From Escherichia phage phAPEC8, in the sequence record NC_020079.1: DNA of 64,000 nt; one strand, written 5' to 3'. Within the stretch, counting starts at the first letter, position 1. Each line of letters starts with the position of its first letter. Below are positions 19,887 through 38,957 of this stretch, in pieces. The notes beneath the pieces were generated by a model that did no database searches, had not been told where the DNA came from, and was given only the letters and a program-made list of their open reading frames with translations. The position numbers and the translations under genes were made by a program.

Positions 19887-22484
19887 TCAATGACAGGATG
19901 CCCAGGAATTACCCACATCATATCCGGCAGTAAGCTGAACATTAAGATTGTAAAATTCTCCAGCCTTAGTAACAGCTAAGGCAGCAAGTTCACCTGCCCG
20001 ACTATAGGCTGTAAACCATCCACCTTTGGGAGATTCATGAATGTTAGCCCAAATTTGTCCCGTCTCTTTTTCCTTATTATGCTTCCATTCTTCAACTTTA
20101 GCAAGGCATTCTTTATCAATTTTCTTTTGTTCTTCAGGATCGTCTACTTTCTTCCAACCTAACGATTCAGGTGAAAACCATTTGAATTCTACAAGGTTAC
20201 GAGAAACTTCAAGCTGGGCTTCATCGTGATATGCGATCATTTGTTGCACGAAGTCTTTATTCTTCCAGTCATCTTTAAAGAAGTCAACACTTAGTCCTTC
20301 TTCTTCGATCATGTCGTCATAAATAACCATTGCACGTTTAGCACAGATAACCCCACCACTTTGGAACAGAGAGTTAAGAATCGCGTGAGCAGAACGAGTA
20401 GGAACCTTACGACCGTCAATACCCAAAACATATTGTTTACCAGTCTTAACCCAGAAATCGTTTAAACGTTCTTTAAGACGCGCCAATGGGAATGCAGCTT
20501 CCCAGAAAGCATCGAACACCAATTGACCTGTAAACTTATCGCTACCAATTGTTTTAGCAACCTTGTCGGCTTGTGCACCATAGGTAATACCATACTTAAC
20601 AGATTTAGCAGGACTACGTTCAAATTTACGTCCAATAGTTTCAGTGATACGTTTTGCCATCATTGTGTGAACATCATTAGGTTTCTCTAACAGCAGAGCG
20701 TTACAATATTCGTGTGGCTCCGGCTCGTACCGCCAACAGTAGTGTGATTCAATTTTTGCTTCCAAAGAGTCGAAGTCGTAGCCGATCTGGAAGTATTTAG
20801 GAACCTCTACACCAAACAAGTTACGCATCTCCCATCCAAACAAAGATGTGACACGAGGAATATTAGCTACAGATCTATGCTTCATACGAGAGGTTGCAGC
20901 ATCACATGTAGCGGCTGGTGTAGGAATACGCCCATCCGCCCTTACTGCGGCTAAGAAACCTTTATCGTATTCTTGATCTTCTTCGTCTTCTTCCCAATCA
21001 GCACCGCCACCTAAAATAGAGTTCCTACGATGCTTATACGTTAAGTATTCTACAATCTGTGTAGCATAAGGGAATTTCTCACCCAAAGCTTGCAGGTTAG
21101 GACAGATTTCTTTTTCCTGACCTTTGGTAAAACATGGGTTAGTCAATACTTTAAGACCGCGACCTTTACCTTTTGCTATACGCTCTTGAATCTTCCTTTC
21201 CAAGGTTTCCGGTGTGCACTCCAGATGATCACAACGGTCCTGACAAAAATTAGAAGATAGAGTTTGCTCAACGTAAGCTCGAATACCTTTCTGAAGTTCT
21301 TCCTCGCTCTTTTTAATCTTGGTGCCAGATTTAAGAGTCAAGTCTTTATCTTTATATTCAGACGGTACCCAACCTAATCCTACAAGCCAGTTTTTAATAT
21401 GGGTTGTATCGTTCAATGTTGCAGGGATGTTAGGATCACACAGAGGCTCATCTGCTGCAACTGGCAGTTTCCACTCTTTCCCCAACATAACTAACCACCA
21501 ATCGCCATCCCTCTCTTCCAAATGACCATCATGTTTCTTAGCAAAATTGATCATATGGTTAGTTGGCTCTAAGTTCTTTTTAATTTGCAACTTAGGTGGA
21601 ATAAAAGCTTTAAGATAACCTTTTGTTGCTGGTTTAGGTGGCAAAATAGGCTCAACGAGTAAACGAAGACGCTCCATTTCTGCATCCAAAAAAGCAAGGT
21701 TCTCTTCTGCTTGTTTCATGTTAAAAGCAAACCCACGGTGTTCCTGGCGTGTAATAATGTCTGCTACACGTTGTTCAAGTTCAAATGGACCTTCCCATTT
21801 ATCATAATCACCCCATTCTTCCATAAGGTAATTATATACGCTCGTATTGGCTTTGTTGTCATAGATACAGTAATAAAGCATATCCGCAGCAAAAGTCTTA
21901 AATCGATCTTCTTCTGGAATCTCTTTACGGAAATCTATTTTTACATCACCACCTGCTTTTCGAGAAAGTGCTGCCAAGCTATGTCCTGATTTGCCCTCAA
22001 TCTTTCGATCTGGGTTTAACACTTTACTCAAAATCAAGGAGTCAATAAGTTTTACCTTATTTTTGCCCCACGTATTATATTTAACACTGTAATCTAATCC
22101 ATAAAACAGTTTTGTAGCCAACCAGTCGTAGTTGATACCGTTGTGAGCCACAGCCATTTCAACCAGATATTCAGGCTTGTCTTTAAAATAACCTTCATGA
22201 TTAATAAAATCTGGGAAATCTTTTAGTTGAAAATGTGTGTAATCTTGTGCCACATACTCTTTAAGAACATATGTGTATTTACCATCTGACTCTTCATAAG
22301 GACGCCCATCAAAGATGTATTTAGGGCCATCGTGGAAAGCTACTATTTCTCCTGTTTCATGGTTCTCTAAGACAATACAGTGCATTTGAAATGTGTCTTT
22401 GAGACGATAAGGACTAGCTAAATAATCAATAGTGTCATTATTCAACAATCCGTTTGCTTCAATATCCCATGTAAACTTACTCAC
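19887..22484 (-). CDS. Family A DNA polymerase, T7 gene 5-like
   Basis: 865 aa; N-terminal WDIEANGL (Exo I D-x-E); RSPAKSVKYGITYGAQ (motif B); IAYHDEAQLEV (motif C); C-terminus ...NSWASCH parallels T7 gp5 ...NWAICH. Confidence 0.85.
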   Translation of the reverse strand: MSKFTWDIEANGLLNNDTIDYLASPYRLKDTFQMHCIVLENHETGEIVAFHDGPKYIFDGRPYEESDGKYTYVLKEYVAQDYTHFQLKDFPDFINHEGYFKDKPEYLVEMAVAHNGINYDWLATKLFYGLDYSVKYNTWGKNKVKLIDSLILSKVLNPDRKIEGKSGHSLAALSRKAGGDVKIDFRKEIPEEDRFKTFAADMLYYCIYDNKANTSVYNYLMEEWGDYDKWEGPFELEQRVADIITRQEHRGFAFNMKQAEENLAFLDAEMERLRLLVEPILPPKPATKGYLKAFIPPKLQIKKNLEPTNHMINFAKKHDGHLEERDGDWWLVMLGKEWKLPVAADEPLCDPNIPATLNDTTHIKNWLVGLGWVPSEYKDKDLTLKSGTKIKKSEEELQKGIRAYVEQTLSSNFCQDRCDHLECTPETLERKIQERIAKGKGRGLKVLTNPCFTKGQEKEICPNLQALGEKFPYATQIVEYLTYKHRRNSILGGGADWEEDEEDQEYDKGFLAAVRADGRIPTPAATCDAATSRMKHRSVANIPRVTSLFGWEMRNLFGVEVPKYFQIGYDFDSLEAKIESHYCWRYEPEPHEYCNALLLEKPNDVHTMMAKRITETIGRKFERSPAKSVKYGITYGAQADKVAKTIGSDKFTGQLVFDAFWEAAFPLARLKERLNDFWVKTGKQYVLGIDGRKVPTRSAHAILNSLFQSGGVICAKRAMVIYDDMIEEEGLSVDFFKDDWKNKDFVQQMIAYHDEAQLEVSRNLVEFKWFSPESLGWKKVDDPEEQKKIDKECLAKVEEWKHNKEKETGQIWANIHESPKGGWFTAYSRAGELAALAVTKAGEFYNLNVQLTAGYDVGNSWASCH

Positions 22485-23278
22485 TATCCCTCCTTTCTAA
22501 TGTTCTCCAGAACCCACTGAAGTTCTTTTAAACTTAAACTTCTTACTCCCGCAGTTTTACTAGCTTCAGCTTTAAGTAACGGGTAAGCCTCAATGATACG
22601 CGTTTTAAGATCAGAAGTCAAGGCTTTTAAAAAATAGGTAGATGCTTCAGATAAAGAATCCTCTTCTGATAACACTTTACCTGCACTTGCTCCCGCTCTC
22701 CTAACGGCTATGTCGTAGTCTTTACTGTTGCCTAATACGAATAGTCGATTTTCTCCTAAAACAACGGGAGAACGCTTCTCGTTGCGTTTAATCCATATCT
22801 GGAATACACAAGGAACATCCCAAGGTTCTCCATGAAGAATAAAAGATCCTTTTGGACATTCTTCTTCGTAAAGAAGATGCATGTGGGGATTTAGTTTGTG
22901 TGCAAAAAAGATTTTTTGAAATGTGCGAGGCAAGATAAAACAAATACCACCTTCGTTATCCAGCATTTCAGCACAATGGTTAAAGAATTTAATGGCAAGA
23001 CTAGCATTTTTTCCAAACGGAGGATTACCGACAAAAGCAGTTACACTGCCAACAGACTCAACAGATTGAGCTAAAAAATCTGCCTCAATACAATCTTCAA
23101 ACTTAGGGTCAATATCAAAAGAAGTTATGTTTTTAAAACAAGAAGAGAAAGCTCCTTCTCCCGCAGATGGTTCTACGTAGTTAGCTTCCTCTCCAAAAAT
23201 TTCTTTGATCTTATCACATAAGAACCCCGCATAAGCGGGGTTAGTGTAATATTGATCAAGTGTGTTCAACTTGCTCAA
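22484..23278 (-). CDS. N6-adenine methyltransferase (probably DNA)
   Basis: 264 aa; EPSAGEGAF (AdoMet-binding motif I) and GNPPFG (NPPF catalytic motif IV). Confidence 0.6.
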   Translation of the reverse strand: MSKLNTLDQYYTNPAYAGFLCDKIKEIFGEEANYVEPSAGEGAFSSCFKNITSFDIDPKFEDCIEADFLAQSVESVGSVTAFVGNPPFGKNASLAIKFFNHCAEMLDNEGGICFILPRTFQKIFFAHKLNPHMHLLYEEECPKGSFILHGEPWDVPCVFQIWIKRNEKRSPVVLGENRLFVLGNSKDYDIAVRRAGASAGKVLSEEDSLSEASTYFLKALTSDLKTRIIEAYPLLKAEASKTAGVRSLSLKELQWVLENIRKEG

Positions 23279-23797: not shown

Positions 23798-23813
23798 AAG
23801 GGCCGAAGCCCTT
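23798..23813 (-). other. Hairpin at the primase-helicase stop
   Basis: AAGGGC-CGAA-GCCCTT overlapping the stop codon. Confidence 0.35.
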
Positions 23814-25590
23814 AATAGTTGCTATCCGTAGGCAAATTAGCAGGATTGTTGAAATACTGCTCTTTGTCATGCAGAGTTGCAGTTCTAATGTCATAGTAAA
23901 ACTGCCCTGCCGGACCAGTTTCTGAGAACTCACGGTTTTTTAGGATAAAGCAATGAGTCGTATTGCGTTCTACAGGGTCTTCAGCGGCTTTATCTCGTTC
24001 CAAAGCCAAGGTAATACCAGCACCTTTAGCCAAGAAACTACTACCCATTGCATCGTCCTCTGTTAAGTGTTCATTGCCACCATTAGCCGATTTCTTAACG
24101 TGTGAGATGACAATAATAGTTATAGCATACTCTTTCATGATGCGCTTCAACCATGTTGCTAACTCTTCCTGGGCTTGAACATCCATACCAGAAAGCAAAT
24201 CAGAATAAGGGTCGATAACAAGAATTGTTACTCCAAAATAGATGATCATCTCCAAAACTTTTTCTTTGATAGACTCCACATCTGCTCCACGATCATCACA
24301 CACATAAAAACGTGGTGATCCATCTTCTCTTTCGTAAAAATCTAGGATTTTTTCTTTATTCTCTTCCAAGATTTGAAATTTCTCTTCCGGTGTTTTCCTG
24401 TGTAGAGGAATATGCAGGAACGAGGACAACAGGTTACGAGAATATTTCTTATAAGTTGCTTCCAAGGACAGAATACCTAGGGTATGTTCTGGGTGCGCAA
24501 CAATAATATGTTTGGTGATCTCGTTCACCATCAAAGTTTTACCGATACTGGTCTTTGCCAGGATAACTGTAATCTCTTCCTCTACTAAACCACCACCCAG
24601 CATATTTGCAGCAACACGCATAAAAGGAGGCAAGGTAATCATCTTGGATTCCAAGCATTCTAATGCAGCTTCATACAAGACATTAGAAGCATAAACACCT
24701 GCTGGGGTGTATAGACGAGCACTCCAAAAAGCTTTTACGAAATCTTTTGCACGACCTTCTTCCAGATACTGATTGGCATCCTTAAGATCCATCTGCATAC
24801 GGTAGACTTTGTTACGAGGCAACACCTTAACAATATTTTCAAATGCCTCATTACCTGCTTTGTCATTATCCATGCAAACAATAATCTTCTTAAATTTTTC
24901 AAAGAAAGGATATTGTGCCTGAACTTGTTTATACATACTGGTTTCACCAGTTGTGCCACTAACTACTGCTGGAAGTTCATATTTGTTGTCCAAGTTTTCA
25001 GACAGCATTTGATAAGCTGCCAGAGCATCGTGTTCACCACCTGTAATTACCACAGTATGAGAACGGTCTGCAAAACGAATTTGTCCAAAAAGATCTACAT
25101 CTTTACCTACTTGACCAATAGGTTTACTGAAATCTTTAGGATGAATACGACGCTTAAAACCAACCAATTCTTTACCGATAGTAGTTGGATATAAACAACT
25201 TTCTACTACCATCTGATCCCCTTCCTGGCGGTATTCATAACGAACACCATAGAAAGATGAAACTTTTTCTTTAATGCCTCGATAACCACGTGGGTTGGTT
25301 GATGTTTCTTGAACAATTTTACGATGAATCTGTTTATTAAATTCCGAACCCACAATCTCCTCCTCTTCTTCTAAAACTTCACCATTTTCTCGTAACCATT
25401 CTACGCTAGGAATAGTGTATTCACACGCAAAGCACTTAGCACCTTTATGCTCTCCATTAGAATCTAATCCATAAACCATCAGGTTATTACGAGAGCGATC
25501 CTTGCCATTTTTCATGCAGCGCGGACAACCTGTATGTCCTTCCTTGCTAAGATCAACATCAAATCCATATTTAGTTATAATGTGCGACAC
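23812..25590 (-). CDS. Bifunctional primase-helicase, T7 gp4-like
   Basis: 592 aa; N-terminal Cys4 zinc ribbon (CPRC...CFAC); central primase region; C-terminal DnaB-like helicase with Walker A-like AKTSIGKT. Confidence 0.75.
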   Translation of the reverse strand: MSHIITKYGFDVDLSKEGHTGCPRCMKNGKDRSRNNLMVYGLDSNGEHKGAKCFACEYTIPSVEWLRENGEVLEEEEEIVGSEFNKQIHRKIVQETSTNPRGYRGIKEKVSSFYGVRYEYRQEGDQMVVESCLYPTTIGKELVGFKRRIHPKDFSKPIGQVGKDVDLFGQIRFADRSHTVVITGGEHDALAAYQMLSENLDNKYELPAVVSGTTGETSMYKQVQAQYPFFEKFKKIIVCMDNDKAGNEAFENIVKVLPRNKVYRMQMDLKDANQYLEEGRAKDFVKAFWSARLYTPAGVYASNVLYEAALECLESKMITLPPFMRVAANMLGGGLVEEEITVILAKTSIGKTLMVNEITKHIIVAHPEHTLGILSLEATYKKYSRNLLSSFLHIPLHRKTPEEKFQILEENKEKILDFYEREDGSPRFYVCDDRGADVESIKEKVLEMIIYFGVTILVIDPYSDLLSGMDVQAQEELATWLKRIMKEYAITIIVISHVKKSANGGNEHLTEDDAMGSSFLAKGAGITLALERDKAAEDPVERNTTHCFILKNREFSETGPAGQFYYDIRTATLHDKEQYFNNPANLPTDSNY

Positions 25591-25602: not shown

Positions 25603-25881
25603 TTAAAATGGTTCGTTAGTCTCCATCATATATTCTGCTTCTAGTTCTTCCATATGCTTTCTAAATTGGAAAGCAATTTCTGCTACAGTTACATTTAAAT
25701 CTTTTTCAAAAACTTCTGTAGAGCCTTCATAAAAACGAATACCGTCAATTAAAAGCCCTCCGTGGTAATCCCAATCACTTTCACGAGAAAGCGGGTTAGG
25801 CTCTTCATAATAGTAATCCACCTCCACGACTAAAGCTTTCCCGTTACGAGCGGTGTATTCAAAATCAAAAGTGTTAATCAT
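25603..25881 (-). CDS. Hypothetical protein
   Basis: 92 aa, start-overlapping the upstream gene. Confidence 0.35.
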   Translation of the reverse strand: MINTFDFEYTARNGKALVVEVDYYYEEPNPLSRESDWDYHGGLLIDGIRFYEGSTEVFEKDLNVTVAEIAFQFRKHMEELEAEYMMETNEPF

Positions 25882-26825
25882 TATAGCTCCTCAAATAAAA
25901 GTCTACGACGCTCATTCAACACATCAATGTGATAATGAGTCCTGACATACTTAGCTAATGCTAATCCTTTCTCCATGCAAACATCGGGAGCACTTAATAA
26001 GTATTCCGTAATATCTTTCCACTCGGAAGGTGTTTCAGCAAAGAATAACAAATCTTTAAACTCTTGTGTATGATAATTCTCACGAGGAGAACAGATCAAA
26101 GGTAAACCCTTAGCACCTGCCTCAAGAATTTTAAGATTGCTTTTTGCATTATTAAACACGTTATCAATCAATGGCGCAAGACTGATTTGATGACCATCGT
26201 AAGATTCCATGTAGTTGGCATATGGTCTTACACCTTCATAAACACAAGTTGGTGCTACATTTTCTCTGATTACAGACCATTCACGACTACTTAAAACTTC
26301 AGAATCCCTACGAAAACCACATATTGTAAGATCTTTACCAAAATCGGGCAAGATAGCCAAGTCTTGTTTATGTGTTTCACTTCCAGCCCAGACTAATGGA
26401 GTTTTGGAGTAGCGATCACGGGTCAACACAAATTGACCTTCATCGTAAGGAAGTCCATTAGGGATTATGTGCACATTATCATTGTATTGTGAAAGTTCAA
26501 CTTGCAAAGCAGGTGTCGTAGTTGTAACGAGATCGCTGTGCTCTAAAAACCATTTTAAATGTTCACGAATACCTGATTCAAAAATACCTTCTAACATGTG
26601 TCCTTTTGGAATAACTAAAGAGTCATCCAAATCCATAACCATTTTAAAGCCTAGGTTTTTAAGGGCTAAAAAGCCCTCTTTACCTTTTGTTGGCACCCCG
26701 TTAAAAACGAAAACGTTGTGTTTAGGTTGTGAAGAGAACTGCCTTGAGTAAGGCAGCACTACTCTATGGAAATCGCAGACACTATAATTGATTCCGTTAC
26801 GATTGTCAAGAATTATTTGTCCCAT
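25881..26825 (-). CDS. GT-B fold glycosyltransferase (group 1-like), paralog 1
   Basis: 314 aa; C-terminal KILEAGAKGLPLICS resembles the group-1 donor-binding motif; paralogous to the next gene. Confidence 0.5.
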   Translation of the reverse strand: MGQIILDNRNGINYSVCDFHRVVLPYSRQFSSQPKHNVFVFNGVPTKGKEGFLALKNLGFKMVMDLDDSLVIPKGHMLEGIFESGIREHLKWFLEHSDLVTTTTPALQVELSQYNDNVHIIPNGLPYDEGQFVLTRDRYSKTPLVWAGSETHKQDLAILPDFGKDLTICGFRRDSEVLSSREWSVIRENVAPTCVYEGVRPYANYMESYDGHQISLAPLIDNVFNNAKSNLKILEAGAKGLPLICSPRENYHTQEFKDLLFFAETPSEWKDITEYLLSAPDVCMEKGLALAKYVRTHYHIDVLNERRRLLFEEL

Positions 26826-26832
26826 ACTTCAC

Positions 26833-27783
26833 CTACAAACTTTCAATAACCTGGCGTCGCAACTCGTTTGCATCTGCCAGATTATAATGTGTTCGAACAT
26901 GTTCAGCCAAGAACAAGCCACGATCTTCCCGATAGTTTGGATTGCGAAGAAGCTTAACAATTTCGTAATGCCATTCTGCTTTATTCTCTGCGTAAGCAAC
27001 AGCGCGAGCATCTACAGGGTTAAAATAAGGTAATACCTTAGAACAAACAATTGGAATACCTTTTGCTCCAGCTTCCAGGATTTTGAGATTACTTTTACAA
27101 TTATTAAAATCGTTATCTACCAAAGGAGCTATAGCAATAGCATGACTTTCGTAAACACTCATGTAATTATCTAAATCTTTTACAGCGGCTTTATATTTGG
27201 CATTTGGTAAATTTCTGCGAATCTTAATCCACTCTTGTCCTGTGATGCTTTGTGATGCTTCATATCCCGCAATAGTAAGAAGTTCATCATCGAAAGTATT
27301 AGAGACTAGTCGTAAATCGGGTTCGTGACTAGCACCGCCAGCCCATACAACAGGGGTACCGGATGAACGATCATTTGACAAAGTGAATTGTCCGCTATCA
27401 AAAGGAAGTGCATTTCGGATCACAACAACATTCCTATTTAAGTGGCGGATCTTATATGCCAAATATTCCGTAGTCACAATAACCACATCAGCAAGCTTAA
27501 CCATAGCTACAATAGCATGAGTGTTTGACTCGTATAGACTTGCTAAATAATGTTCTGGATTGAGTTGGTAGAAATCATCTAAATCTACAACAATCTTAAC
27601 ACCTTGACGTTTCAAAGATAAAACGTATTCTGCACCTTTAGAGTGGATACGGTTAAACACAACAACATCTTTCTTAGGTTGAATATTATTGTTGTTAAAG
27701 GGCATAACAATACGATGATAGTCACAACCGCTATGAGGTTTTGCATCAATTTTTAGTTTAGACCATTTTTTTTTATTTGACAT
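26833..27783 (-). CDS. GT-B fold glycosyltransferase (group 1-like), paralog 2
   Basis: 316 aa; KILEAGAKGIPIVCS; shared CD(F/Y)HR(V/I)V, VWAG, NxxxNxKSNLKILEAGAKG blocks with paralog 1. Confidence 0.5.
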   Translation of the reverse strand: MSNKKKWSKLKIDAKPHSGCDYHRIVMPFNNNNIQPKKDVVVFNRIHSKGAEYVLSLKRQGVKIVVDLDDFYQLNPEHYLASLYESNTHAIVAMVKLADVVIVTTEYLAYKIRHLNRNVVVIRNALPFDSGQFTLSNDRSSGTPVVWAGGASHEPDLRLVSNTFDDELLTIAGYEASQSITGQEWIKIRRNLPNAKYKAAVKDLDNYMSVYESHAIAIAPLVDNDFNNCKSNLKILEAGAKGIPIVCSKVLPYFNPVDARAVAYAENKAEWHYEIVKLLRNPNYREDRGLFLAEHVRTHYNLADANELRRQVIESL

Positions 27784-28456
27784 GTGCTAGTGCCTCCTCA
27801 TAGGAAATTCGGATTTTCCCATTTTTAATATCCTCTAAAGATGCTTTATATTCTTCCCAGTTAATCCCAATAGCAGCTTCTTTCTCTTCTTTTGTCAGAT
27901 TAGCAAAAGGCATAGGATTGTTTCCAAAAACATCGTCTGGGTGGATATAAGCCATGATACGAAGTGGACAAGGTGTTGCCTGAATACCATGATTCAAACC
28001 AGCAGCTTGCAAACGGTGTCCCCATTCAGCATCTTCAAAACCATAACCGTGAGTGTAAGGACGGAAATAACCCATCTTCTCAACAACGGCACGAGAATAC
28101 ATTGCAAATTGACACATTGCAAGTTCCCAGAGAATAACTTCTCCTTTGCTTCCAACAACTTTATCTTTGAAATACTCCGGCATACCAAAGAAATCCCATC
28201 CTCCAGAGACAGCTTGATCTACAAAGTATGTTTCCCATCCCTCCATGACTGGGTAGCAATCGTCGTCAAAAATAAACCAATAATCATAACCTTCTTCATA
28301 AAACTGGTGCATAAGTTCATTCCTGGCATAAGCTACACCTTTACGATCTGGATCGTTGAATACTCGAAAATCTGCACGTGGATCTGTTACAAGGTAGTCT
28401 TTAAGTGGACGGACACCTACAGTGATAACACCCACTCCGATTTTAATATTTTCCAT
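27773..28456 (-). CDS. GT-A fold (family 2-like) glycosyltransferase
   Basis: 227 aa; FIFDDDCYP (DxD) and GYGFEDAEWGHR (GT2-type ED motif). Confidence 0.5.
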   Translation of the reverse strand: MENIKIGVGVITVGVRPLKDYLVTDPRADFRVFNDPDRKGVAYARNELMHQFYEEGYDYWFIFDDDCYPVMEGWETYFVDQAVSGGWDFFGMPEYFKDKVVGSKGEVILWELAMCQFAMYSRAVVEKMGYFRPYTHGYGFEDAEWGHRLQAAGLNHGIQATPCPLRIMAYIHPDDVFGNNPMPFANLTKEEKEAAIGINWEEYKASLEDIKNGKIRISYEEALAHVK

Positions 28457-28464
28457 TTTCTCTC

Positions 28465-29028
28465 CTAAATAGTTTTACTGTGATCATGACAGTGTAATAA
28501 ATGATGTATAGACCGTTGAGGATTTGTTTGACCTAATCTGTAAATGTGAAACAGATACATTCCCCGCATCAATCCTAACCTCTTTCCTTTTTCATGTAAA
28601 GTGCGAGAGAAAATTAAGTCGAATTGGATAGATTTTTCTTCGAAAGGAATTTCATTCCACAATGATTTTCTAAAAAGCAAAAAGAAACCTGCCAGAGGTG
28701 TTCCGAAAGGAACTTCTTCAACATTTACTTTATGATATTCTCTTGCAATCTTAGCATATTCTATATGGTTTAGAATATCGGGATCATCGTTAATTTGGTT
28801 AGAGAAAAGCTGATAACCACTACCTAACCTGTTACAAGTTGCACCTATTACATCAAAAGGCGGGTTTGACATAACAAGCTCTTCAAGCATAGATGGTTGA
28901 TCAGGTAGGAGGAACATTGTATCGGTATCTCTTAAACACACCCAACTATCATCTGGAAGAACGGCAATGGCTTCATTGATAGCCTTGCCGATATTTCCTG
29001 TCAGATAGGGAGTAATATAATAAATCAT
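28465..29028 (-). CDS. Possible small GT-A-like transferase
   Basis: 187 aa; N-terminal beta-strand then DDSWVCLRDTDTMF (D-x-D like); co-operonic with three glycosyltransferases. Confidence 0.3.
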   Translation of the reverse strand: MIYYITPYLTGNIGKAINEAIAVLPDDSWVCLRDTDTMFLLPDQPSMLEELVMSNPPFDVIGATCNRLGSGYQLFSNQINDDPDILNHIEYAKIAREYHKVNVEEVPFGTPLAGFFLLFRKSLWNEIPFEEKSIQFDLIFSRTLHEKGKRLGLMRGMYLFHIYRLGQTNPQRSIHHLLHCHDHSKTI

Positions 29029-29729: not shown

Positions 29730-30251
29730 TTAACTCCCCTTTGGTAGATAGAAACCATGCACTTTATCTCGATAAACAAGACGCATATCACGTTCCCAGT
29801 GTGTCCTTATATTCCGTTTCTTGAAGTATAGAGCACCTTTAGTAACATCTAAAACAGACCGCAATTCAGGAAAATGTTTCTCTAAATAAAGTAAACGCTC
29901 CGCTATTGCTTTTGCTTCCTGCCACTTATCTTTCTCTGTTACGTTAAAAGTTTTCGCATATGAGAATTGCCCTTTCTGGAACAAGACTCCTCTGACTGTG
30001 TTAGGGAAGTAGGTATCATTTCTTCTGTTGATTACCACATTCCCAACGGCATTCATTCCTTTTTTACCCAGACCGCGACCTTCTGCGTAAATTGCACAAG
30101 CTAATAGAATTTTATCATTATATTGCTTTGTACATTTGTGAACTACTTTAGCGGTTTTTACGTTTGCAGCTTCGGCTTTCGCCACAACAGGTGTAAATGT
30201 AAAAGCAGTTAAGGATAGTAACGCAACTGTTACAAAGTTTTTTATCAGCAA
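29730..30251 (-). CDS. SleB/CwlJ-like cell-wall hydrolase with signal peptide
   Basis: 173 aa; signal peptide LLSLTAFTFTPVVAKA; CAIYAEGRG motif; TTG start behind RBS AAGGAGG. Confidence 0.55.
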   Translation of the reverse strand: MLIKNFVTVALLSLTAFTFTPVVAKAEAANVKTAKVVHKCTKQYNDKILLACAIYAEGRGLGKKGMNAVGNVVINRRNDTYFPNTVRGVLFQKGQFSYAKTFNVTEKDKWQEAKAIAERLLYLEKHFPELRSVLDVTKGALYFKKRNIRTHWERDMRLVYRDKVHGFYLPKGS

Positions 30252-30350: not shown

Positions 30351-30953
30351 TTATGGACATTCATACCATTCTTTTTTACCACCAAAGGCCATCACCACAT
30401 CGCAAATATCCAGACCAGCTTTACCTACACCATATGCTTTCAGCTTCCATTCCCCATCTTCACGAACCAGCGAAGCCACGTGGCAGATTGTGTTGCCAGC
30501 TACTTCAGGAGCCAGGAAGTCAAAATCCAGAATTTCCACATTGCGCTCGGAGTCGAAGATTTTAAGCATACCTTCAGAAGCATGACCAAAACGTTTCAGA
30601 CCTGTATCATCATCAATGGTCAGAACAAAGGCAATCTCTTGTGCATCAGGAGAGATTTTAGCCAGAGTAATATCAATCTGCTCCATGCTGCCAGTTCCAT
30701 CACGAACATCGTCACCAGCGAAGGTAGAACGTTCAGGATCAAACTTGTTAGCATAGCAAACCAGATGACGTGCAGACAGCATTTCAGGATTGCCAGCGGC
30801 ATTATGACGACAAACCAGTGCACTTACATCCAGATCCAGTTTAGAATCAGATTTCCAAGAGAATTCCAGGCGCAGTTCTTTCAGAGCCGGAGCAACTTTC
30901 TTCAGGGAAATTTTTTCGCTAGAACCTTTTTTCAGGGAAATTTTATCAGTCAT
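30351..30953 (-). CDS. terD: TerD-family stress protein
   Basis: 200 aa; block-wise match to E. coli TerD: ISLKKG..ISLKK, DLDVSALVC, GDDVRDGTGS, FVLTIDD, GEWKLKAYGVG. Confidence 0.8.
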   Translation of the reverse strand: MTDKISLKKGSSEKISLKKVAPALKELRLEFSWKSDSKLDLDVSALVCRHNAAGNPEMLSARHLVCYANKFDPERSTFAGDDVRDGTGSMEQIDITLAKISPDAQEIAFVLTIDDDTGLKRFGHASEGMLKIFDSERNVEILDFDFLAPEVAGNTICHVASLVREDGEWKLKAYGVGKAGLDICDVVMAFGGKKEWYECP

Positions 30954-30968
30954 CTTTTGTCTCCTCTA

Positions 30969-31238
30969 TTATTTAAGTGTAATACCAGTTACAGTCAATT
31001 CTACTTCCAAAAGCTTAGATGTGTTTTGGATTGATACTAATTGTGCATGATGGTTTAGTTCTACAGCAGAATAATCATTTTCCCCATCATCTACTTTTAA
31101 ATAAACAATGATTTCACTAAGGTCTAAACCATTTTCGTCAAATGCATTTTCATAGACGAAAGTATCTCCTACATCCAAATCTTTAATGGTAAGGCATCGT
31201 TTATTTACTTTTTGCTCATCAATTTCGAAGTTTAACAC
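30969..31238 (-). CDS. Small protein, paralog B of a duplicated pair
   Basis: 89 aa; shares DLDVG(D/A)TF(V/M)Y...Y(E/D)...GLD and C-terminal T(G/N)ITLK with ORF 32260-32604. Confidence 0.4.
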   Translation of the reverse strand: MLNFEIDEQKVNKRCLTIKDLDVGDTFVYENAFDENGLDLSEIIVYLKVDDGENDYSAVELNHHAQLVSIQNTSKLLEVELTVTGITLK

Positions 31239-31467
31239 TTCTTCCTCCTAATGTTATCTCCGGTTTGTATATACGAAGAATTATAGCATTTTCATTTTCT
31301 TTGTCAACCCATTCTTCATAATCGGGCCATACATGAATCTCTACTCTACTTACAATATCTTCCATCCGCACAATCCCAATGAAATACTCTTTGAGACTGC
31401 GCATAATGAAAGCTTCTCTCTCGCGCCAATAATTTTCTACGACTTGAGAGGCAAGCTCGTCGATCAT
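31219..31467 (-). CDS. Hypothetical protein
   Basis: 82 aa ORF, coupled. Confidence 0.3.
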   Translation of the reverse strand: MIDELASQVVENYWREREAFIMRSLKEYFIGIVRMEDIVSRVEIHVWPDYEEWVDKENENAIILRIYKPEITLGGRSVKLRN

Positions 31468-32258
31468 TTTTTAGCACCTACTTTAACAACCCACTCTCCG
31501 AACTCTTCAGATAAGAGTTTGTCATAAAGCTCTGAATCTGTCAAGTCTAAATCTTTAATGCCAATGAAACCAACATTATCATAAGCATTTGCCAGTTCTT
31601 TCAGGAAGCCAAACTTCTCATTACCAACGCCAACCATGAACCAATAAATAGGTTTATTCTTATTCTCTTCGATAAGACGACGAACAGCACTAGGATCACC
31701 ATTCTCACCATCCGTTTGGAAGAATACAACACCAGGGGTAACGTCAGCACCTGGTTCAGATACAGCTACAACCTTTTCACGCTCTACAGATACTGTTTCA
31801 GTTTTACCAAGCAGACGATTAAAGAAGCCTTTCTTTGGAGCCTCCTCTTGTACCACTTGTTTAGTGGTAATATATTTGGTAACAGTGCCAAAATACTCGT
31901 CGTAGATATCTGCCATTACAGGGGCGTAGTTTGTTCCACCTCCGATACGAACATTACGCATACATTTACCAACATAATCATCGTAAACGTCTGCTGTTGC
32001 TGGGGTAAGCTCTTGAGAACTCGTATTAAAGGCCCACATATCAATTTGTTCATTATCGTCGAACAGCATACCAAAAGGAAGCAGTTTACCTACAAAATCA
32101 CTCACTACCCCACTAGCATATAGACCATGCATACTACCAGAAATATCTAGAGCACATGCTACACGAAGAACAATCTTACCTTCATTCAGGTTCTTATTCT
32201 TTTTCAGAGAGAAAGCAAGGTTTTCTTGACGTTTTTTCAGGCTGATTTTCTCGGACAT
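31464..32258 (-). CDS. von Willebrand factor A domain protein (TerY-like)
   Basis: 264 aa; MIDAS elements DISGSM (DxSxS), GGGT, FFQTDGENGD; N-terminus MSEKISLKK..SLKK echoes the TerD N-terminus. Confidence 0.7.
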   Translation of the reverse strand: MSEKISLKKRQENLAFSLKKNKNLNEGKIVLRVACALDISGSMHGLYASGVVSDFVGKLLPFGMLFDDNEQIDMWAFNTSSQELTPATADVYDDYVGKCMRNVRIGGGTNYAPVMADIYDEYFGTVTKYITTKQVVQEEAPKKGFFNRLLGKTETVSVEREKVVAVSEPGADVTPGVVFFQTDGENGDPSAVRRLIEENKNKPIYWFMVGVGNEKFGFLKELANAYDNVGFIGIKDLDLTDSELYDKLLSEEFGEWVVKVGAKK

Positions 32259-32259
32259 A

Positions 32260-32604
32260 TTATTTCTCCTTCTTAAGTGTAATGTTGGTAACTTCTAAAT
32301 CTACTTCCACCATCTTTGTATCTGGTGGGATGCAATGAGTATAGCCTCGTTGTGCTAGTGATCCATTAATACAGATCGCACTGTTTGTGGAATTTTTAAT
32401 GAACACCAAGTTACGGTAGGTATCCAACCCTGCGTCTTCATAGGCATCATAATACATGAATGTGGCCCCTACGTCAAGATCTTCGAAAGCAATAGGTAAA
32501 TCCTGACTTTTTTCTTCTTGAATATTGAATCTAAACACGCATACCTCCTCTACCAATTTTGAAGCCCAAATCGTAAGCTTCCTTAGTGATCTTTTGTAAC
32601 TCAC
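32260..32604 (-). CDS. Small protein, paralog A of a duplicated pair (true start probably internal)
   Basis: 114 aa as tracked, overlapping the upstream gene by about 70 nt; paralogous core begins near FRFNIQEE. Confidence 0.4.
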   Translation of the reverse strand: MSYKRSLRKLTIWASKLVEEVCVFRFNIQEEKSQDLPIAFEDLDVGATFMYYDAYEDAGLDTYRNLVFIKNSTNSAICINGSLAQRGYTHCIPPDTKMVEVDLEVTNITLKKEK

Positions 32605-33094
32605 TTATAGGAAGTGTTACAAGAGGATCATCTTCTTCAATTTCCATCTTGTCATCTTCTGTTTCAATGAGAGTATTATGCACTTTGTGATAAGGGTTGT
32701 CAACACGTTTAAACTTATTCTTTTCTGTGCTGAAAAAACAATCTGGATCTTCTTCACCATCACCCCAACCTTGGTTAGGATCTCCGTCAGATTGTTCTGT
32801 AGGGATTTCACCTGTAAAGTACTCTTCCAGCACCATAGCGATACCGTCCCTTGGATTTGAGGAATGCATCAAATCACAAACCTTACTCCAATCCATAGCC
32901 CATTCAAATCGTTCACGAACACCATTTTCATCCTCCTTTCCAGAGAAAACACAACCATAACTATCATAGTTGCCATACATCTCTTCAATAACAACACCGT
33001 CCTTCAAAAGAAAGAGATAACAAGGTGATCCGTCGAAAGAAGTAGAAAGGGCAGCTTTGCCCGATTCTTTGCACAAAAAGCTAAAACAACCCAT
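32531..33094 (-). CDS. Hypothetical acidic protein
   Basis: 187 aa ORF. Confidence 0.35.
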   Translation of the reverse strand: MGCFSFLCKESGKAALSTSFDGSPCYLFLLKDGVVIEEMYGNYDSYGCVFSGKEDENGVRERFEWAMDWSKVCDLMHSSNPRDGIAMVLEEYFTGEIPTEQSDGDPNQGWGDGEEDPDCFFSTEKNKFKRVDNPYHKVHNTLIETEDDKMEIEEDDPLVTLPISELQKITKEAYDLGFKIGRGGMRV

Positions 33095-33492
33095 TACAAA
33101 CCCTCCTTCAGATTATCAAGAGCTACAGTGGTTTCACAAAATTCTCCATAAGCTTTATGATGTTCCAGAAAAGCTTCGGGTCCACCCCAGTCATTATCTT
33201 GTGTATTCCAGCCATCAATAAAAGCATCTTCAATGATTGTGATCAGTTCCTGTCGAGTCAACGTAATGGTATCAGGTTTCTGCGTAGTTTCCACACGGAA
33301 CCCTGGTTCTTCATAAAAACCTTTAGTTACAATGGATTCTAACTCTTCTGCATCACAGAGGAAGTAGCCACAAAGATAACACCCACCGTCATCATCTTTC
33401 ATTACTTCATAAACTTCACCACTTGCTAACTTGATGAAAAGAGTAGGGTCTGTTACTGTAAGTTTTAAAAGAATACCTGTTGGATTATACAT
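33094..33492 (-). CDS. Hypothetical protein
   Basis: 132 aa ORF; start-overlaps the upstream stop. Confidence 0.35.
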   Translation of the reverse strand: MYNPTGILLKLTVTDPTLFIKLASGEVYEVMKDDDGGCYLCGYFLCDAEELESIVTKGFYEEPGFRVETTQKPDTITLTRQELITIIEDAFIDGWNTQDNDWGGPEAFLEHHKAYGEFCETTVALDNLKEGL

Positions 33493-33658
33493 CTTCTTCC
33501 TCCTCTAAGATATGGAACCCGTAATTACAATAATCCTGAAAGGTTTCGTGTGCAAGATCTTCTATATCTTCTTGAGACATATCATCTTCAATTTCGATAT
33601 CTACAACCTCATTGCATCCACACCAAGCCGTTTCAATATTCACTCGTAATATTTTCAT
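33485..33658 (-). CDS. Small acidic protein (57 aa, not in ORF track)
   Basis: ATG overlaps upstream TAA (TAATG) and its stop overlaps the next ATG; MKILRVNIETAWCGCNEVVDIEIEDD... Confidence 0.3.
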   Translation of the reverse strand: MKILRVNIETAWCGCNEVVDIEIEDDMSQEDIEDLAHETFQDYCNYGFHILEEEEDV

Positions 33659-33858
33659 TACTCCTCCTCCTCCTCATTGAAGTCAATATCTGCAAGGAGT
33701 TCGAATTTACGGAAGTTACGACAACCTTCATAAATATAACAATCACGACAAACTGCTAGAACACTTGGGGGATATATGCCTCCCATCGGTGCGAATCGTT
33801 TTTCGTCATCATAACGGACACCAATGTCTTCATCAATTATATAGATACGGATTCTCAT
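33658..33858 (-). CDS. Small Cys-containing protein
   Basis: 66 aa; CRDCYIYEGC; acidic C-terminus; coupled to telA stop. Confidence 0.35.
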   Translation of the reverse strand: MRIRIYIIDEDIGVRYDDEKRFAPMGGIYPPSVLAVCRDCYIYEGCRNFRKFELLADIDFNEEEEE

Positions 33859-34967
33859 TTACCAAGCCCTCGTTTCACAGCAGCTACCATCCCGTCTTCC
33901 AGAGATTGAACTTCATTAATATAATCAACACGAGCAGCACGGGCTTCCGTATTGATGCGGTTAGTTTCTTCCAACATCTTAACCAAGTTTTCCTGATCGT
34001 GACGCAGAGTTTCAATATCCAACACTTGACGGTTAGCCAGTGCTGCTGCTTCGATCTGATTCTGTGTGGCAAGATCGCTACCCAGTTTAATTGCCAGGTT
34101 AAATTCATCAAGAACGTTATTCTGCGTCTCTGCTGCTTTCATTTGACGTAAGCTCTCGATATACATTGAGAAGTTAGCAGAGTAAGCAGGAATAACATTA
34201 TTTACTATGTTACGCGCAGATCGCATTAAGCTTGCAGAAACTTTTTGCATACCTTGTACACGCGGTCCCATTTGGACACACAGTAGGCGCAATGCTTTTA
34301 AATCTGCAATACGAATCTCCAGAAGATCCAAAGTATCTCGGATCACTTGTCGCTGTTCTACTGCATCTTCTGGAAGAGCAGCCAAAGCTTGTTCTTCTTT
34401 TTCATAGGTTGCTGTTAGAAGCTGCATATCTCGGTTCAAACTTGCAGCATATTGTCCAATAGCTTGATGTAGCTTTTCAAGATATACCAAGGAATCTTCT
34501 TCTTTGCGAATATCCATTTGAAGGTTCTTTACCAACTCTTCAATACGGTTATTAACATTATCAAACTCCCCAAACAGATCTTCTTTCATACCCATAACTT
34601 TTTTAATGAGTTTAGTAATACCCTTGCTTTGTTTAATAGAGTTTGGATCAAGTTGTTTTGCCTGTTTAATCAAAGCTGTGAGTCGTTCACTCATCTGATC
34701 GCCTTGATTACTACGTTGATGTTTTAATACCTCGGCATTCAAGGAACGCAAGGTTGTTCCTGCCTCTGCCCCAATCTCTTCAATCTCTTGTCGGGTCATA
34801 GAAGGCAAAACTGGAACTTCTTGCGGTGCCGCTGGTGCATAAACAGGACTGGCATCTAACACGCTTGGAGCGAATACAGATTTACTTGCATCGGTTGTTG
34901 CAGCAAATACGCTCATTTCAGGCTTCTTCTGACCACCAGTAGCTGCTTTTAAAAATGGACTTGTCAT
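33855..34967 (-). CDS. telA: TelA/KlaA-like toxic-anion-resistance family protein
   Basis: 370 aa, largely helical/coiled-coil, size and composition of the TelA family; sits in a Ter gene neighbourhood. Confidence 0.6.
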   Translation of the reverse strand: MTSPFLKAATGGQKKPEMSVFAATTDASKSVFAPSVLDASPVYAPAAPQEVPVLPSMTRQEIEEIGAEAGTTLRSLNAEVLKHQRSNQGDQMSERLTALIKQAKQLDPNSIKQSKGITKLIKKVMGMKEDLFGEFDNVNNRIEELVKNLQMDIRKEEDSLVYLEKLHQAIGQYAASLNRDMQLLTATYEKEEQALAALPEDAVEQRQVIRDTLDLLEIRIADLKALRLLCVQMGPRVQGMQKVSASLMRSARNIVNNVIPAYSANFSMYIESLRQMKAAETQNNVLDEFNLAIKLGSDLATQNQIEAAALANRQVLDIETLRHDQENLVKMLEETNRINTEARAARVDYINEVQSLEDGMVAAVKRGLGK

Positions 34968-35554
34968 TCTTCATTCTCCTCTTCTGCATCTCTTATATAT
35001 GGTGAAACACCGTACTCTTTAGCTACTTTAACCCAATCGTCCCATTTATACAACCATAATTTTCCTTCGGTCCCTTCTTTATCTGATTTCAACCACATAT
35101 TAGGTTGCTTACCTGGGTACATGCGATTAGGTTTACGATTATAACCTCTAACACATCTTGTCGCAAACCCATCTACCAGAACAAGAACATATTTATATTC
35201 GTGGTTCAACGGCTCTTTGGAAGTGGCTTTAGGATTAGCCCCTAATTCTGCTGCCAGTTTTTGCCAATGAGCACCGTGCCTACTAAACTTACCCATACAA
35301 CCATCAATAGCATGAGCAATTTCGTGCTTCATTGTGTCCACGATCATATCTCTTGTGGAGTTCTTATGCAAGTGCCAATTTACAACAACAATTTTATCTC
35401 GGTAGTTGCACCAACCGAAAGAGTTATTCACTTTGTTTCTAACACAAGCTTTATATCCTGCTTCACGTAACATGTTGTAGTAAACAGGAAAATCTTCTTT
35501 TATTTCCTGCATCACTTCCCACCACAAGAGTTGCAAGTCTCTCTCGGTATGCAT
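34964..35554 (-). CDS. SprT-like zinc metallopeptidase
   Basis: 196 aa; HEIAHAI (HExxH) followed by GKFSRHGAHW. Confidence 0.5.
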   Translation of the reverse strand: MHTERDLQLLWWEVMQEIKEDFPVYYNMLREAGYKACVRNKVNNSFGWCNYRDKIVVVNWHLHKNSTRDMIVDTMKHEIAHAIDGCMGKFSRHGAHWQKLAAELGANPKATSKEPLNHEYKYVLVLVDGFATRCVRGYNRKPNRMYPGKQPNMWLKSDKEGTEGKLWLYKWDDWVKVAKEYGVSPYIRDAEEENEE

Positions 35555-35557
35555 AAC

Positions 35558-36151
35558 TTACACCTTAAAAGCGAAATGCGTGGTCGTGGCTTCAAAATCA
35601 GGGCCAGATAAACTTGCACTGAAATCTGAAATATTTGTAATTAAAAAGCTTTTATGCATACCTAACACAGCCACGCTTTCAATATCTTCTACTAACATTT
35701 CAATCATGTTAGAAACATGGCTGAACGTATAGTTTTGTTTTTTGATGGTGTAGAAAGAAAGACTCCCACCTGCTGTATAAGATACCTCTTCAAAATCTTT
35801 AATCGTATATTGTGTACCATCAGTAAAGAAAATGGTAGCTTTATTAGTAGCACGTTTCTTGTTTTTTGGTCCTTTTTTACGTTTACTGCGAGTAGGCAAA
35901 CCGTTTGGGAACACCGTAGCTACAAATTCTTCAGGGGAAACCTCCTTACCGAAATCATAATCGTAAGAAACAGCGTCTATACACTCGTCGTCTTCATTTT
36001 TAAAATAATGAAAATAGGGCCAATTTGAGAGATTATCGAGCATCTTATGCGCATCCACAACAGAGAACGTATCCCTCAAAGCACGTGTGATTTGCAAAGC
36101 ATTAGGCAAACTTTTAACACCTGTAATGGAAGTACGAATAGAAATTGTCAT
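35558..36151 (-). CDS. Hypothetical protein
   Basis: 197 aa ORF. Confidence 0.35.
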   Translation of the reverse strand: MTISIRTSITGVKSLPNALQITRALRDTFSVVDAHKMLDNLSNWPYFHYFKNEDDECIDAVSYDYDFGKEVSPEEFVATVFPNGLPTRSKRKKGPKNKKRATNKATIFFTDGTQYTIKDFEEVSYTAGGSLSFYTIKKQNYTFSHVSNMIEMLVEDIESVAVLGMHKSFLITNISDFSASLSGPDFEATTTHFAFKV

Positions 36152-36165
36152 TGTTTTTCTCCTTA

Positions 36166-36603
36166 TTAACGTCGCTTGCTACGAGATGAACTCTTTTTAC
36201 TTAAAGGGCTATTGTAAGATTTACGAGTTGTATAGCTACTATTTGTTTTAAAAGTTTGTCTCGGCTTTTCATAAGTTTTTATCTCTTGTTTAGGCTTACC
36301 ATAAAAATTAGTTTTCGGTTTAGGTGTATTATAATGCTTATTAATAATCGTTCTGTTATCGTTATAATCCCCACTGCTACGATTACTACCACCACTCATC
36401 ATATGCCCTAACAACATACCTGTAGCAAACTCACCAACACCGCTACTACTAGAACCGCCACCATTGTTGATAATAGTTGTATCTCCGTCAGATCCTTGTT
36501 GAGCGTATTGTTGAGGAGGTTGTTGGTATTGTGCAGGATTTGTTTCATCCTCGCAAGCTGTTAAAAAGATACAACCAATTAAAATCAGGGCTAGTTTTTT
36601 CAT
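36166..36603 (-). CDS. Lipoprotein with Gly/Ser-rich region
   Basis: Start at ATG behind GAGGAAAG; signal MKKLALILIGCIFLTAC (lipobox LTAC); Q/G/S-rich linker. Confidence 0.5.
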   Translation of the reverse strand: MKKLALILIGCIFLTACEDETNPAQYQQPPQQYAQQGSDGDTTIINNGGGSSSSGVGEFATGMLLGHMMSGGSNRSSGDYNDNRTIINKHYNTPKPKTNFYGKPKQEIKTYEKPRQTFKTNSSYTTRKSYNSPLSKKSSSRSKRR

Positions 36604-36790
36604 ATTTGCTTTCCTCATTTTGACTATTAATACATCTGTGTTTGAAATCTCCAGAGAAGCAATAAAGTTGCTCTCCATCTCGGTATAAACTCACTTTACT
36701 GCCGTTGATTACGCTTGTCAATACAAAAATTACAACAAACAACCCTATTGCAAAACAAATATTTTCAAACACAACCAACAAGTATTTCAT
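36545..36790 (-). CDS. Small membrane protein
   Basis: 81 aa; hydrophobic N-terminus LLVVFENICFAIGLFVVIFVL. Confidence 0.3.
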   Translation of the reverse strand: MKYLLVVFENICFAIGLFVVIFVLTSVINGSKVSLYRDGEQLYCFSGDFKHRCINSQNEESKYEKTSPDFNWLYLFNSLRG

Positions 36791-37137
36791 TTTAAAAATA
36801 CCTCATCATCAGTCTCATTATCCCAGAAGAACAAATCCCAACCATTCGGATCATTCCATTTGGCTGCTGGAGAAGTCCATATTTGTTCGATATCAATATT
36901 CAAAACTTCACCGTTTCGTTTTGAAACAGCTTTAGTTAATTCCCAACGAGATACAGGCTCTACTTCCCCTGAACCACTCCCACAACAAGCTACCACGTTA
37001 GGAGGCAAATTAATTGGATCTTTGGTCACGATCATAACGCTTACCCCAGGGTAAACTTTTGAAAGATAATCTAAAACGTAATCCACATCACCAGATAAAT
37101 CCCAAACAAGTTCTTGAATTTCATCAAAATTATTCAT
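36787..37137 (-). CDS. Hypothetical protein
   Basis: 116 aa ORF. Confidence 0.35.
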   Translation of the reverse strand: MNNFDEIQELVWDLSGDVDYVLDYLSKVYPGVSVMIVTKDPINLPPNVVACCGSGSGEVEPVSRWELTKAVSKRNGEVLNIDIEQIWTSPAAKWNDPNGWDLFFWDNETDDEVFLK

Positions 37138-37179
37138 AAGTCTCTCCTATAAAATAGCCTCCCGAAGGAGGCTCATCTA

Positions 37180-38154: not shown

Positions 38155-38173
38155 TATTTTCTCCTTTCTCTTT

Positions 38174-38232: not shown

Positions 38233-38235
38233 CAC

Positions 38236-38457: not shown

Positions 38458-38470
38458 AATATTTCTCCTC

Positions 38471-38944: not shown

Positions 38945-38957
38945 TTTTAGCTCCTTA

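Follow-up and report, generated by a model that had tools for sequence, protein, structure and literature searches.

Four consecutive glycosyltransferase genes in phAPEC8-like phages: a mobile cassette that may build a glycan on virion proteins

Introduction

We report on four consecutive genes of Escherichia phage phAPEC8, a phAPEC8-like myovirus of the genus Phapecoctavirus (Stephanstirmvirinae), located at 25881-29028 of a 64,000-nucleotide stretch of its sequence record NC_020079.1. The whole stretch is called the window below. A preliminary description of the window, made from the letters alone, took the four genes to be glycosyltransferases (GTs) inside the replication module, and read them as a system that glycosylates DNA bases against restriction, with virion-protein glycosylation as its second choice. 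The DNA interpretation was already in the literature, since Olsen et al. noted in 2020 the deoxythymidine diphosphate (dTDP)-rhamnose pathway of this phage group and proposed that hydroxymethylated nucleotides are rhamnosylated (PMC7552041).

The genes and the DNA hypothesis are thus known. What is new here is that the genes belong to a mobile d-c-B cassette, made of GT-d-like, GT-c-like and GT-B genes, with a bias towards head operons, and that a base-hydroxylating partner is absent genome-wide. We will argue that a rhamnose-containing glycan is more likely to be built on virion proteins than on DNA.

The glycosyltransferase genes and their products

All four genes lie on the minus strand. 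GT-a (25881..26825, 314 aa) and GT-b (26833..27783, 316 aa) encode paralogous GT-B-fold glycosyltransferases of GT4-like type. GT-c (27773..28456, 227 aa) encodes a GT2-like GT-A glycosyltransferase with an R...FDDD...YGxED signature, and GT-d (28465..29028, 187 aa) a predicted minimal GT2-like GT-A module with a near-invariant RDxDT motif and an invariant His161. Each gene has an ATG start and an upstream Shine-Dalgarno-like sequence, and the intergenic spacing from GT-a to GT-d, including the two immediate neighbours, is −11 to +16 nt.

All four products match phage glycosyltransferase PHROGs with E values of 1e-78 to 1e-149 (GT-a: phrog_7162, 1.9e-145; GT-d: phrog_14179, 1e-112), and the structure models are high-confidence GT-B and GT-A folds. 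No NCBIfam model matches any of the four, and sequence and profile searches of solved structures with all four proteins gave nothing significant.

GT-a and GT-b have the GT-B topology of two Rossmann-like domains. They are 41% identical (E value 1e-77), and neither deviates at any of the 37 invariant columns in a 41-sequence alignment of the GT-B family (A3). Against Pfam, GT-a reaches 25.2 bits with Glyco_trans_1_2 (PF13524; cut-off 25), and GT-b scores 22.8 and 20.4 bits with Glycos_transf_1-type models, which is under the cut-offs; many family members carry PF13524 or PF13692. It is reasonable to suppose, as the preliminary description did, that the two paralogs would perform two sugar additions or have two specificities.

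GT-c and GT-d belong to the GT-A fold and carry its DxD motif for metal and nucleotide sugar. The GT-c model (predicted local distance difference test score, pLDDT, of 92) is a GT2-like GT-A fold whose structural matches include GlfT2, chondroitin polymerase, ppGalNAc-T1, beta4GalT7, RmlT and TarP/S. Its invariant residues in the family alignment (A1) are R16, D64-D65-D66 and E141-D142, in an F-D-D-D...Y-G-x-E-D pattern.

GT-d has no Pfam, PDB or NCBIfam match. Profile-profile comparison found no similarity between GT-d and GT-c, and the fold of GT-d was therefore checked through its distant relatives. An exhaustive profile search places 981 representative clusters in the GT-d family, and in distant members the region homologous to GT-d passes the Pfam GT2 thresholds (P0284, residues 17-164, 42.9 bits; P0171, residues 422-490, 44.4 bits). 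Together with the near-invariant RDxDT and the invariant His161, these relatives identify GT-d, by homology, as a minimal GT-A module. GT-d modules are also found fused to TOD1/MUCI70 GT-like, GT2 and O-methyltransferase domains; multi-domain proteins that combine the O-methyltransferase, TOD1/MUCI70 GT-like and GT-d parts occur in uncultured phages (L100:1034-2770 and L097:7484-9230).

A membrane-spanning segment is not predicted in any of the four proteins by the Kyte-Doolittle method; the sole window above 1.6 (1.65, in GT-b) corresponds to a buried Rossmann-fold element of the model. We conclude that the four proteins are glycosyltransferases with apparently intact folds and catalytic motifs. 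The preliminary description is thereby confirmed in its account of the genes: the four open reading frames (ORFs) lie exactly where it placed them, PHROG matches, folds and motifs agree with its assignment, two are GT-B paralogs that share the family-invariant residues, GT-c is GT2-like by its model, and the small GT-A-like gene is recognized through relatives that pass Pfam GT2.

A mobile cassette and its genomic settings

The GT-B family occurs at more than 573 loci in viral contigs, and its members in bacterial genomes turn out to be prophages. Hidden Markov model searches of all fetched loci found GT-d-like, GT-c-like and GT-B genes adjacent to each other in many unrelated phages, in the orders d-c-B, c-B-d, B-c and B-d. 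From this adjacency in varying order we take the unit to be a three-family cassette, of which the large-myovirus version (Phapecoctavirus/Justusliebigvirus) has a duplicated GT-B. Lambdoid and HK97-like prophages in Pseudomonas and Serratia are among the carriers. When the loci are clustered at 70% identity into 37 GT-B lineages, GT-c-like genes accompany about 27 of the 37 and GT-d 11. No conserved acceptor protein or base modifier was found to travel with the near-branch cassette. Judged by these comparisons, the cassette is conserved and mobile among phages.

The surroundings of the cassette show a clear bias. It lies in or beside the head/packaging block in 26 of the 37 GT-B lineages: five have it between TerL, portal or capsid genes, four directly 3' of the major capsid gene, and 17 no more than 5.5 kb upstream of TerL on the same strand. 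The neighbouring head genes were verified with PHROGs, and their TerL, portal and capsid families differ between lineages. In Streptomyces phage Zuko the gene order is epimerase, GT, TerS-like, TerL and portal, while in Serratia and Pseudomonas prophages lysis genes are followed by the cassette and then by HNH/TerS/TerL. Two GT-d fusions that were found separately from the GT-B-seeded survey are placed similarly, one between portal and MuF and the other, with stop and start codons that overlap, between the head-tail connector gene and the head-closure gene.

Accessory genes are sometimes present, namely sugar epimerases/dehydratases of the short-chain dehydrogenase/reductase (SDR) type, sugar O-methyltransferases of the TylF/CmcI type, an extra GT2, and a PLOD-type GT domain (known from protein hydroxylysine glycosylation). 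Outside a phage context, in a Burkholderia dolosa stretch (L008:3025-8440), a 411-aa GT-B homolog comes directly after two other genes, one of 853 aa that is invasin/intimin-like and an uncharacterized one of 571 aa. This arrangement is a hint of adhesin glycosylation.

For genome-wide checks outside the 64-kb window we used tuntematon, a complete relative genome that is ~99% identical. Here rmlB, rmlA, rmlC and rmlD are annotated at 121.3-124.6 kb, that is, outside the window and ~70 kb from the GT genes. The 167 phage records with RmlC homologs are essentially the Phapecoctavirus/Justusliebigvirus/Klebsiella-relative set that also carries the GT-B genes (144 phage records in the list of GT-B homologs). 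A complete RmlA-D pathway is accordingly present in the same genome and co-distributed with the GTs, and dTDP-L-rhamnose may well be a donor for these enzymes.

Possible acceptors

We now consider what the enzymes act on, beginning with DNA hypermodification, in which the GTs would rhamnosylate or otherwise glycosylate phage DNA bases, as in T4, RB69 or the TET-associated systems, and so evade nucleases. The logic of Olsen et al. (PMC7552041) applies to this locus, as the GT cluster is inside the replication module and the rml genes are among nucleotide-metabolism genes. DNA is also an acceptor common to all phages, which would account for the mobility of the cassette.

However, every known route of DNA glycosylation requires an enzyme that has previously installed a hydroxyl group. 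In one route, this is a ThyA homolog, which leads to 5-hydroxymethylcytosine (5hmC), 5-hydroxymethyluracil (5hmU) or, in RB69, DLP3 and HY126, 5-hydroxycytosine (PMC13326640). In the other, a TET/5mYOX dioxygenase acts after a methyltransferase (bioRxiv 10.1101/2023.12.21.572611). With E. coli ThyA as the query, tblastn revealed no ThyA-family hydroxymethylase or hydroxylase in the window, in the whole tuntematon genome or in the locus of phage PaulScherrer (L002; best E value overall 0.56), and no Tet_JBP-like ORF was found in the window, the complete tuntematon genome or any d-c-B cassette locus. Pfam scans of 20 candidate proteins, including the neighbourhood of a 'Dcm-like' gene, returned only ThyX, NT5C-like nucleotidase and MazG-like domains, and the early region of prophage L006, visible in its entirety, is without a base modifier. 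The preliminary description had pointed to a hydroxymethylase or other base-modifying enzyme elsewhere in the genome as a check on its idea; neither the window nor the ~99% identical relative has a ThyA-family or TET/JBP enzyme of this kind.

The only thymidylate synthase in the tuntematon annotation is ThyX. We considered it as a cryptic hydroxylase and rejected this option, because ThyX is distributed far beyond the GT-bearing phages: more than 1,000 phage records have it, with rV5, ICP1, N4-like and PAK_P1-like phages among them, and none of these groups is represented in the 144 GT-B-homolog records.

The behaviour of related phages also argues against modified DNA. The phi92-like phages, which have an orthologous cluster, were described as 'exceptionally susceptible' to restriction-modification (RM) systems 'despite a putative dTDP glycosylation machinery' (PMC8594841). 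They are sensitive to Druantia III-A, which T4 with its glucosyl-hmC escapes, and HincII fingerprinting has been used on a phage collection that includes Phapecoctavirus isolates. Our literature search found no direct measurement of DNA modification, including by liquid chromatography-mass spectrometry, or of virion glycans in this phage group.

Sequence and structure comparisons give signals in both directions. The R...DDD...ED signature of DNA-modifying GT-A enzymes is present in GT-c, with A, T, S or V after ED in place of Y/F, and weak matches to the TAGT model (PF20691) occur in 17 of 18 GT-c family members (best E value 1e-4) and in phrog_842. GT-c itself reaches 19.5 bits against a cut-off of 27.5, in an alignment over only 37 residues. 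Membership of GT-c in the TAGT family was rejected on the basis of this sub-threshold score and the missing TET partner. In the structure rankings, T4 alpha-GT comes 19th and beta-GT 36th for GT-b, and a TAGT-domain protein is 37th among viral structures for GT-c, so the DNA-acting enzymes are not the closest ones. We also tried isoelectric point (pI) and net charge as indicators of DNA binding and dropped them, since even a TET-adjacent GT-B homolog is acidic and the values do not discriminate between the hypotheses.

A Tet_JBP gene is near GT-B only in two loci (L075 and L081) of a distant GT-B branch (~32% identity), where the match is borderline and two genes away; other distant lineages lie near Mom-like and ParB-methylase genes. 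In this connection, we note a set of ~32-kb phage contigs with distant GT-B relatives (~32% identity) in which a borderline Tet_JBP dioxygenase (L081:8441-9232), a Mom-family protein (L063:8354-8926) or a ParB-N6/N4 DNA methylase (L087:4486-5604) is encoded just upstream of TerL. These genes may form a DNA-modification island of which a GT-B is part.

The O-methyltransferase and PLOD-GT partners are not known from DNA systems, and many small phages have the cassette in head-morphogenesis operons without any base-modifying partner. Pyle et al. consider an action on DNA less likely for GT hits that have no 5mYOX or ThyS neighbour (bioRxiv 10.1101/2023.12.21.572611). With the base-hydroxylating enzyme absent, relatives RM-sensitive and the cassette in head operons, we consider DNA base glycosylation for anti-restriction, the first choice of the preliminary description, to be unlikely.

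The explanation that we prefer is the one that the preliminary description had ranked behind DNA, namely that the four genes are the GT core of a phage glycan-building system, which assembles a deoxyhexose-containing glycan stepwise on virion proteins. We assign it a probability of roughly 0.45. Virion proteins are rated as the top acceptor because the cassette is repeatedly embedded in head operons and has glycan-tailoring partners, a Burkholderia homolog adjoins an invasin-like adhesin, the prerequisites for DNA glycosylation are missing, and there is the mycobacteriophage precedent, where capsids of cluster F1 phages are glycosylated (Freeman 2023, as cited in PMC11256854).

In the mechanism that we propose, dTDP-L-rhamnose from the phage RmlBACD enzymes, and probably host uridine diphosphate (UDP) sugars too, would serve as donors. 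The soluble GT-d, GT-c, GT-b and GT-a would act in sequence, one of them priming the acceptor and the others extending the chain, to give a short, deoxyhexose-containing glycan of no more than about four sugars. The likely acceptor would be one or more virion proteins, such as the capsid, a decoration protein or another head or tail component. The system would then be a Gram-negative counterpart of the capsid and tail glycosylation of mycobacteriophages and chloroviruses, and the coat could protect particles against proteases and antibodies or keep them from adhering unproductively to debris. We infer in what order the enzymes act, which sugars are involved, that the acceptor is protein and what the phage gains.

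A number of observations weigh against virion glycosylation. The window and four other large-myovirus lineages have the cluster beside the primase/helicase and DNA polymerase; in the window and in its relatives among the large myoviruses, the head genes are ~40 kb away. Early or middle expression is predicted for the cluster from the promoters and the lack of a predicted terminator. The zone upstream of the terminase attracts insertions in general, DNA modifiers among them, and DNA-glycosylation clusters can neighbour structural genes (Pyle et al., bioRxiv 10.1101/2023.12.21.572611). No acceptor protein is conserved with the cassette, although the capsid families of the carrier phages are unrelated. 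Long Ser/Thr-rich tails were found neither on the capsids beside the cassette nor on the capsid, decoration, sheath and tube proteins of tuntematon; these proteins have only short S/T-rich ends (e.g. ...TSSSTT, ...KLTTA). Finally, the literature search gave no report of glycosylated virion proteins in Phapecoctavirus or phi92-like phages.

The two kinds of placement would be reconciled, replication genes in the large phages and terminase/portal genes in the small ones, if the cassette marked DNA, or a component packaged with DNA, by a chemistry that needs no hydroxyl made by ThyA or TET. Such a mark could be sparse or sequence-limited and be missed by plating against common restriction systems. 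We regard this idea as very improbable.

The structural matches raise the option of host envelope remodelling, in which sugars would be added to the lipopolysaccharide (LPS) core, the enterobacterial common antigen (ECA) or another envelope glycoconjugate, such as an undecaprenyl phosphate-linked one, in order to block superinfection, avoid trapping of progeny on debris or modulate lysis. The closest solved structures indeed act on lipid-linked, LPS, phosphatidylinositol mannoside or teichoic-acid acceptors (PglH/WlaC, PimA, WaaG, TarM/TarP/TarS, RmlT and GlfT2). The cassette adjoins lysis genes in several phages (L009, L014 and L094) and is near a SleB-like hydrolase in the window, ECA and LPS-core glucose have been reported as receptors for this phage group, and such acceptors are common across proteobacterial hosts. 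However, the four window proteins have no membrane-spanning segment, no flippase, ligase or Gtr-like gene is present among the Pfam-annotated neighbourhoods, and several cassettes sit between capsid, portal and connector genes, not near integrase/attachment sites or tail fibres. Moreover, little new envelope is displayed during a lytic cycle of tens of minutes, and no conversion phenotype has been reported. Envelope remodelling is in our view quite unlikely.

Another option considered was that a host cytoplasmic protein is the acceptor and is modified for takeover, e.g. by rhamnosylation of the EarP-like kind, or that the sugars go to a small molecule or a nucleotide metabolite. The four proteins are soluble, their expression in the large phages probably falls in the early or middle phase of infection, and the GT-B relatives BshA, MshA and SenB act on small molecules. 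The listed structural matches, however, include no specific similarity to EarP or toxin-type protein glycosyltransferases, three or four cooperating GTs point to an oligosaccharide and not to a single regulatory sugar, and the head-operon placement in small phages is left unexplained. This scenario is very unlikely.

Genome context

The GT block is flanked on one side by a primase/helicase (23812-25590) and on the other by a SleB-like cell-wall hydrolase (29730-30251, minus strand; Pfam Hydrolase_2, E value 2e-17), so its position in the replication module is as first described. A DNA polymerase ORF of 865 aa lies at 19887-22484. The preliminary description also saw an N6-adenine methyltransferase nearby, which would be the methyltransferase-like gene at 22484-23278 (minus strand), beyond the primase/helicase. 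Its NPPF motif and match to phrog_799 speak for this assignment, whereas Pfam Eco57I is matched only at an E value of 0.017 and NCBIfam not at all; it is plausible but weak.

A perfect sigma-70 consensus promoter (TTGACA, 16 nt, TG-TATAAT) is located at 31307-31280 on the minus strand, upstream of the block that contains the GTs, and an 11/12 sigma-70 match at 23781-23753 (minus strand), in the gap after the primase/helicase. Between 31280 and 24710, the minus strand has no predicted terminator-like site. The tight operon with the primase/helicase and DNA polymerase, the upstream sigma-70-like promoters and the lack of a predicted terminator suggest that the GT cluster of the large phages would be transcribed early or in the middle of infection.

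The 3.7-kb stretch around the GT genes is 98-99% identical to TSP7_1, UP17, tuntematon and ~60 other genomes. RefSeq relatives carry the annotation 'glycosyltransferase' four times, and the BASEL phage PaulScherrer is annotated with 'putative disaccharide synthase/glycosyltransferase'. The sister genus (phi92-like, Justusliebigvirus) has a syntenic four-gene GT cluster with ~72% identity and its own rml genes.

Some records in this comparison have unexpected hosts. GenBank 'Acinetobacter' and 'Campylobacter' phage records (e.g. OP562383.1, MG065656.1 and OR584014.1) contain the region at the identity levels of E. coli Phapecoctavirus/Justusliebigvirus (98.5% DNA identity over the GT region for OP562383.1), and 'Pseudomonas phage PsgM04F' groups with Escherichia phage phiWec188, each of which has ~81% protein identity to GT-b. 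The probable explanation is a wrong host label or contamination with a coliphage.

Several other features of the genome can be mentioned. A Ter-type stress or nucleoside-metabolite gene set, which is unusual cargo in a lytic coliphage, adjoins the GT block on the same strand (window 30351-40400). Its members are 'tellurite resistance'/TelA-like, SprT-like, a TerC-like membrane protein, a ComF-like phosphoribosyltransferase (Pfam E value 4.5e-42) and a HAD hydrolase; example coordinates are 33855-34967 and 34964-35554, and ~38.9-40.4 kb by synteny with locus L001. The N-terminus of the SleB-like hydrolase is strongly hydrophobic and signal-peptide-like (Kyte-Doolittle value 1.94), and the genome also has a second lysozyme beside the rml genes and a spanin near the terminase, which gives two candidate lysins. 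The DNA polymerase of PaulScherrer (L002:12458-15772) is annotated with an intein, as a 1,104-aa precursor; the window polymerase is ~240 aa shorter, consistent with no intein.

Significance

Among coliphages with a broad host range, the phAPEC8-like and phi92-like ones are some of the most frequently isolated, and therapy cocktails make use of them. A rhamnose-containing glycan coat, if present, would affect immunogenicity, clearance, stability and adsorption, and phages of Gram-negative bacteria would join the actinophages as carriers of virion glycosylation. Since the cassette occurs in more than 570 viral contigs, knowing its acceptor would give an annotation to a large part of phage 'dark matter' and settle the published disagreement on whether the dTDP-rhamnose machinery serves DNA modification. 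The case is also a caution that a GT cluster in a replication module does not always mean DNA hypermodification.

Comparison with known systems

With the T4 alpha- and beta-glucosyltransferases and the arabinosyl-5-hydroxycytosine systems of RB69, DLP3 and HY126 (PMC13326640), the cluster shares GT-B-fold enzymes among DNA-metabolism genes, and with RB69 also a nucleotide-sugar pathway of its own (UDP-arabinose there, dTDP-rhamnose in phAPEC8-like phages). In contrast to those phages, the ThyA-family enzyme is absent here and relatives are restriction-sensitive according to the literature. The TAGT enzymes (PF20691; Pyle et al., bioRxiv 10.1101/2023.12.21.572611) have the same GT-A R...DDD...ED signature, similar epimerase-plus-GT and sequential-GT layouts, and clusters that are sometimes near terminase or structural genes. 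They differ in that GT-c is under the Pfam threshold and that neither the genome nor the d-c-B loci have the C5-methyltransferase and TET partner.

Closer parallels are found in virion glycosylation. The mycobacteriophages Che8, Corndog and Myrna (Freeman et al. 2023, as cited in PMC11256854) likewise have several soluble phage GTs per genome; in the present case these would decorate capsid or tail proteins. The likeness to actinophages extends to Zuko, where a distant GT-B homolog is beside a sugar epimerase and the terminase. Unlike the mycobacteriophages, the carriers here have Gram-negative hosts and no long Ser/Thr-rich acceptor tails, and the window genes are in the replication module.

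Prophage GtrABC glucosylation of the O-antigen is the parallel for the envelope reading, since it too is phage-encoded glycosylation of a cell-surface glycan that affects adsorption. The Gtr proteins, however, are integral-membrane proteins encoded near attP/integrase and expressed in lysogens, while the cassette is in lytic operons and its products have no predicted membrane spans.

In chlorovirus PBCV-1, capsid glycosylation involves A064R-type modules of rhamnosyltransferase and methyltransferase; that system belongs to a eukaryotic giant virus, and there is no detectable sequence homology beyond the fold. The cassette resembles DNA GT systems only in fold and motif and is not Gtr-like; by analogy, it appears to work like the viral glycan-building systems of actinophages and of the chlorovirus A064R type.

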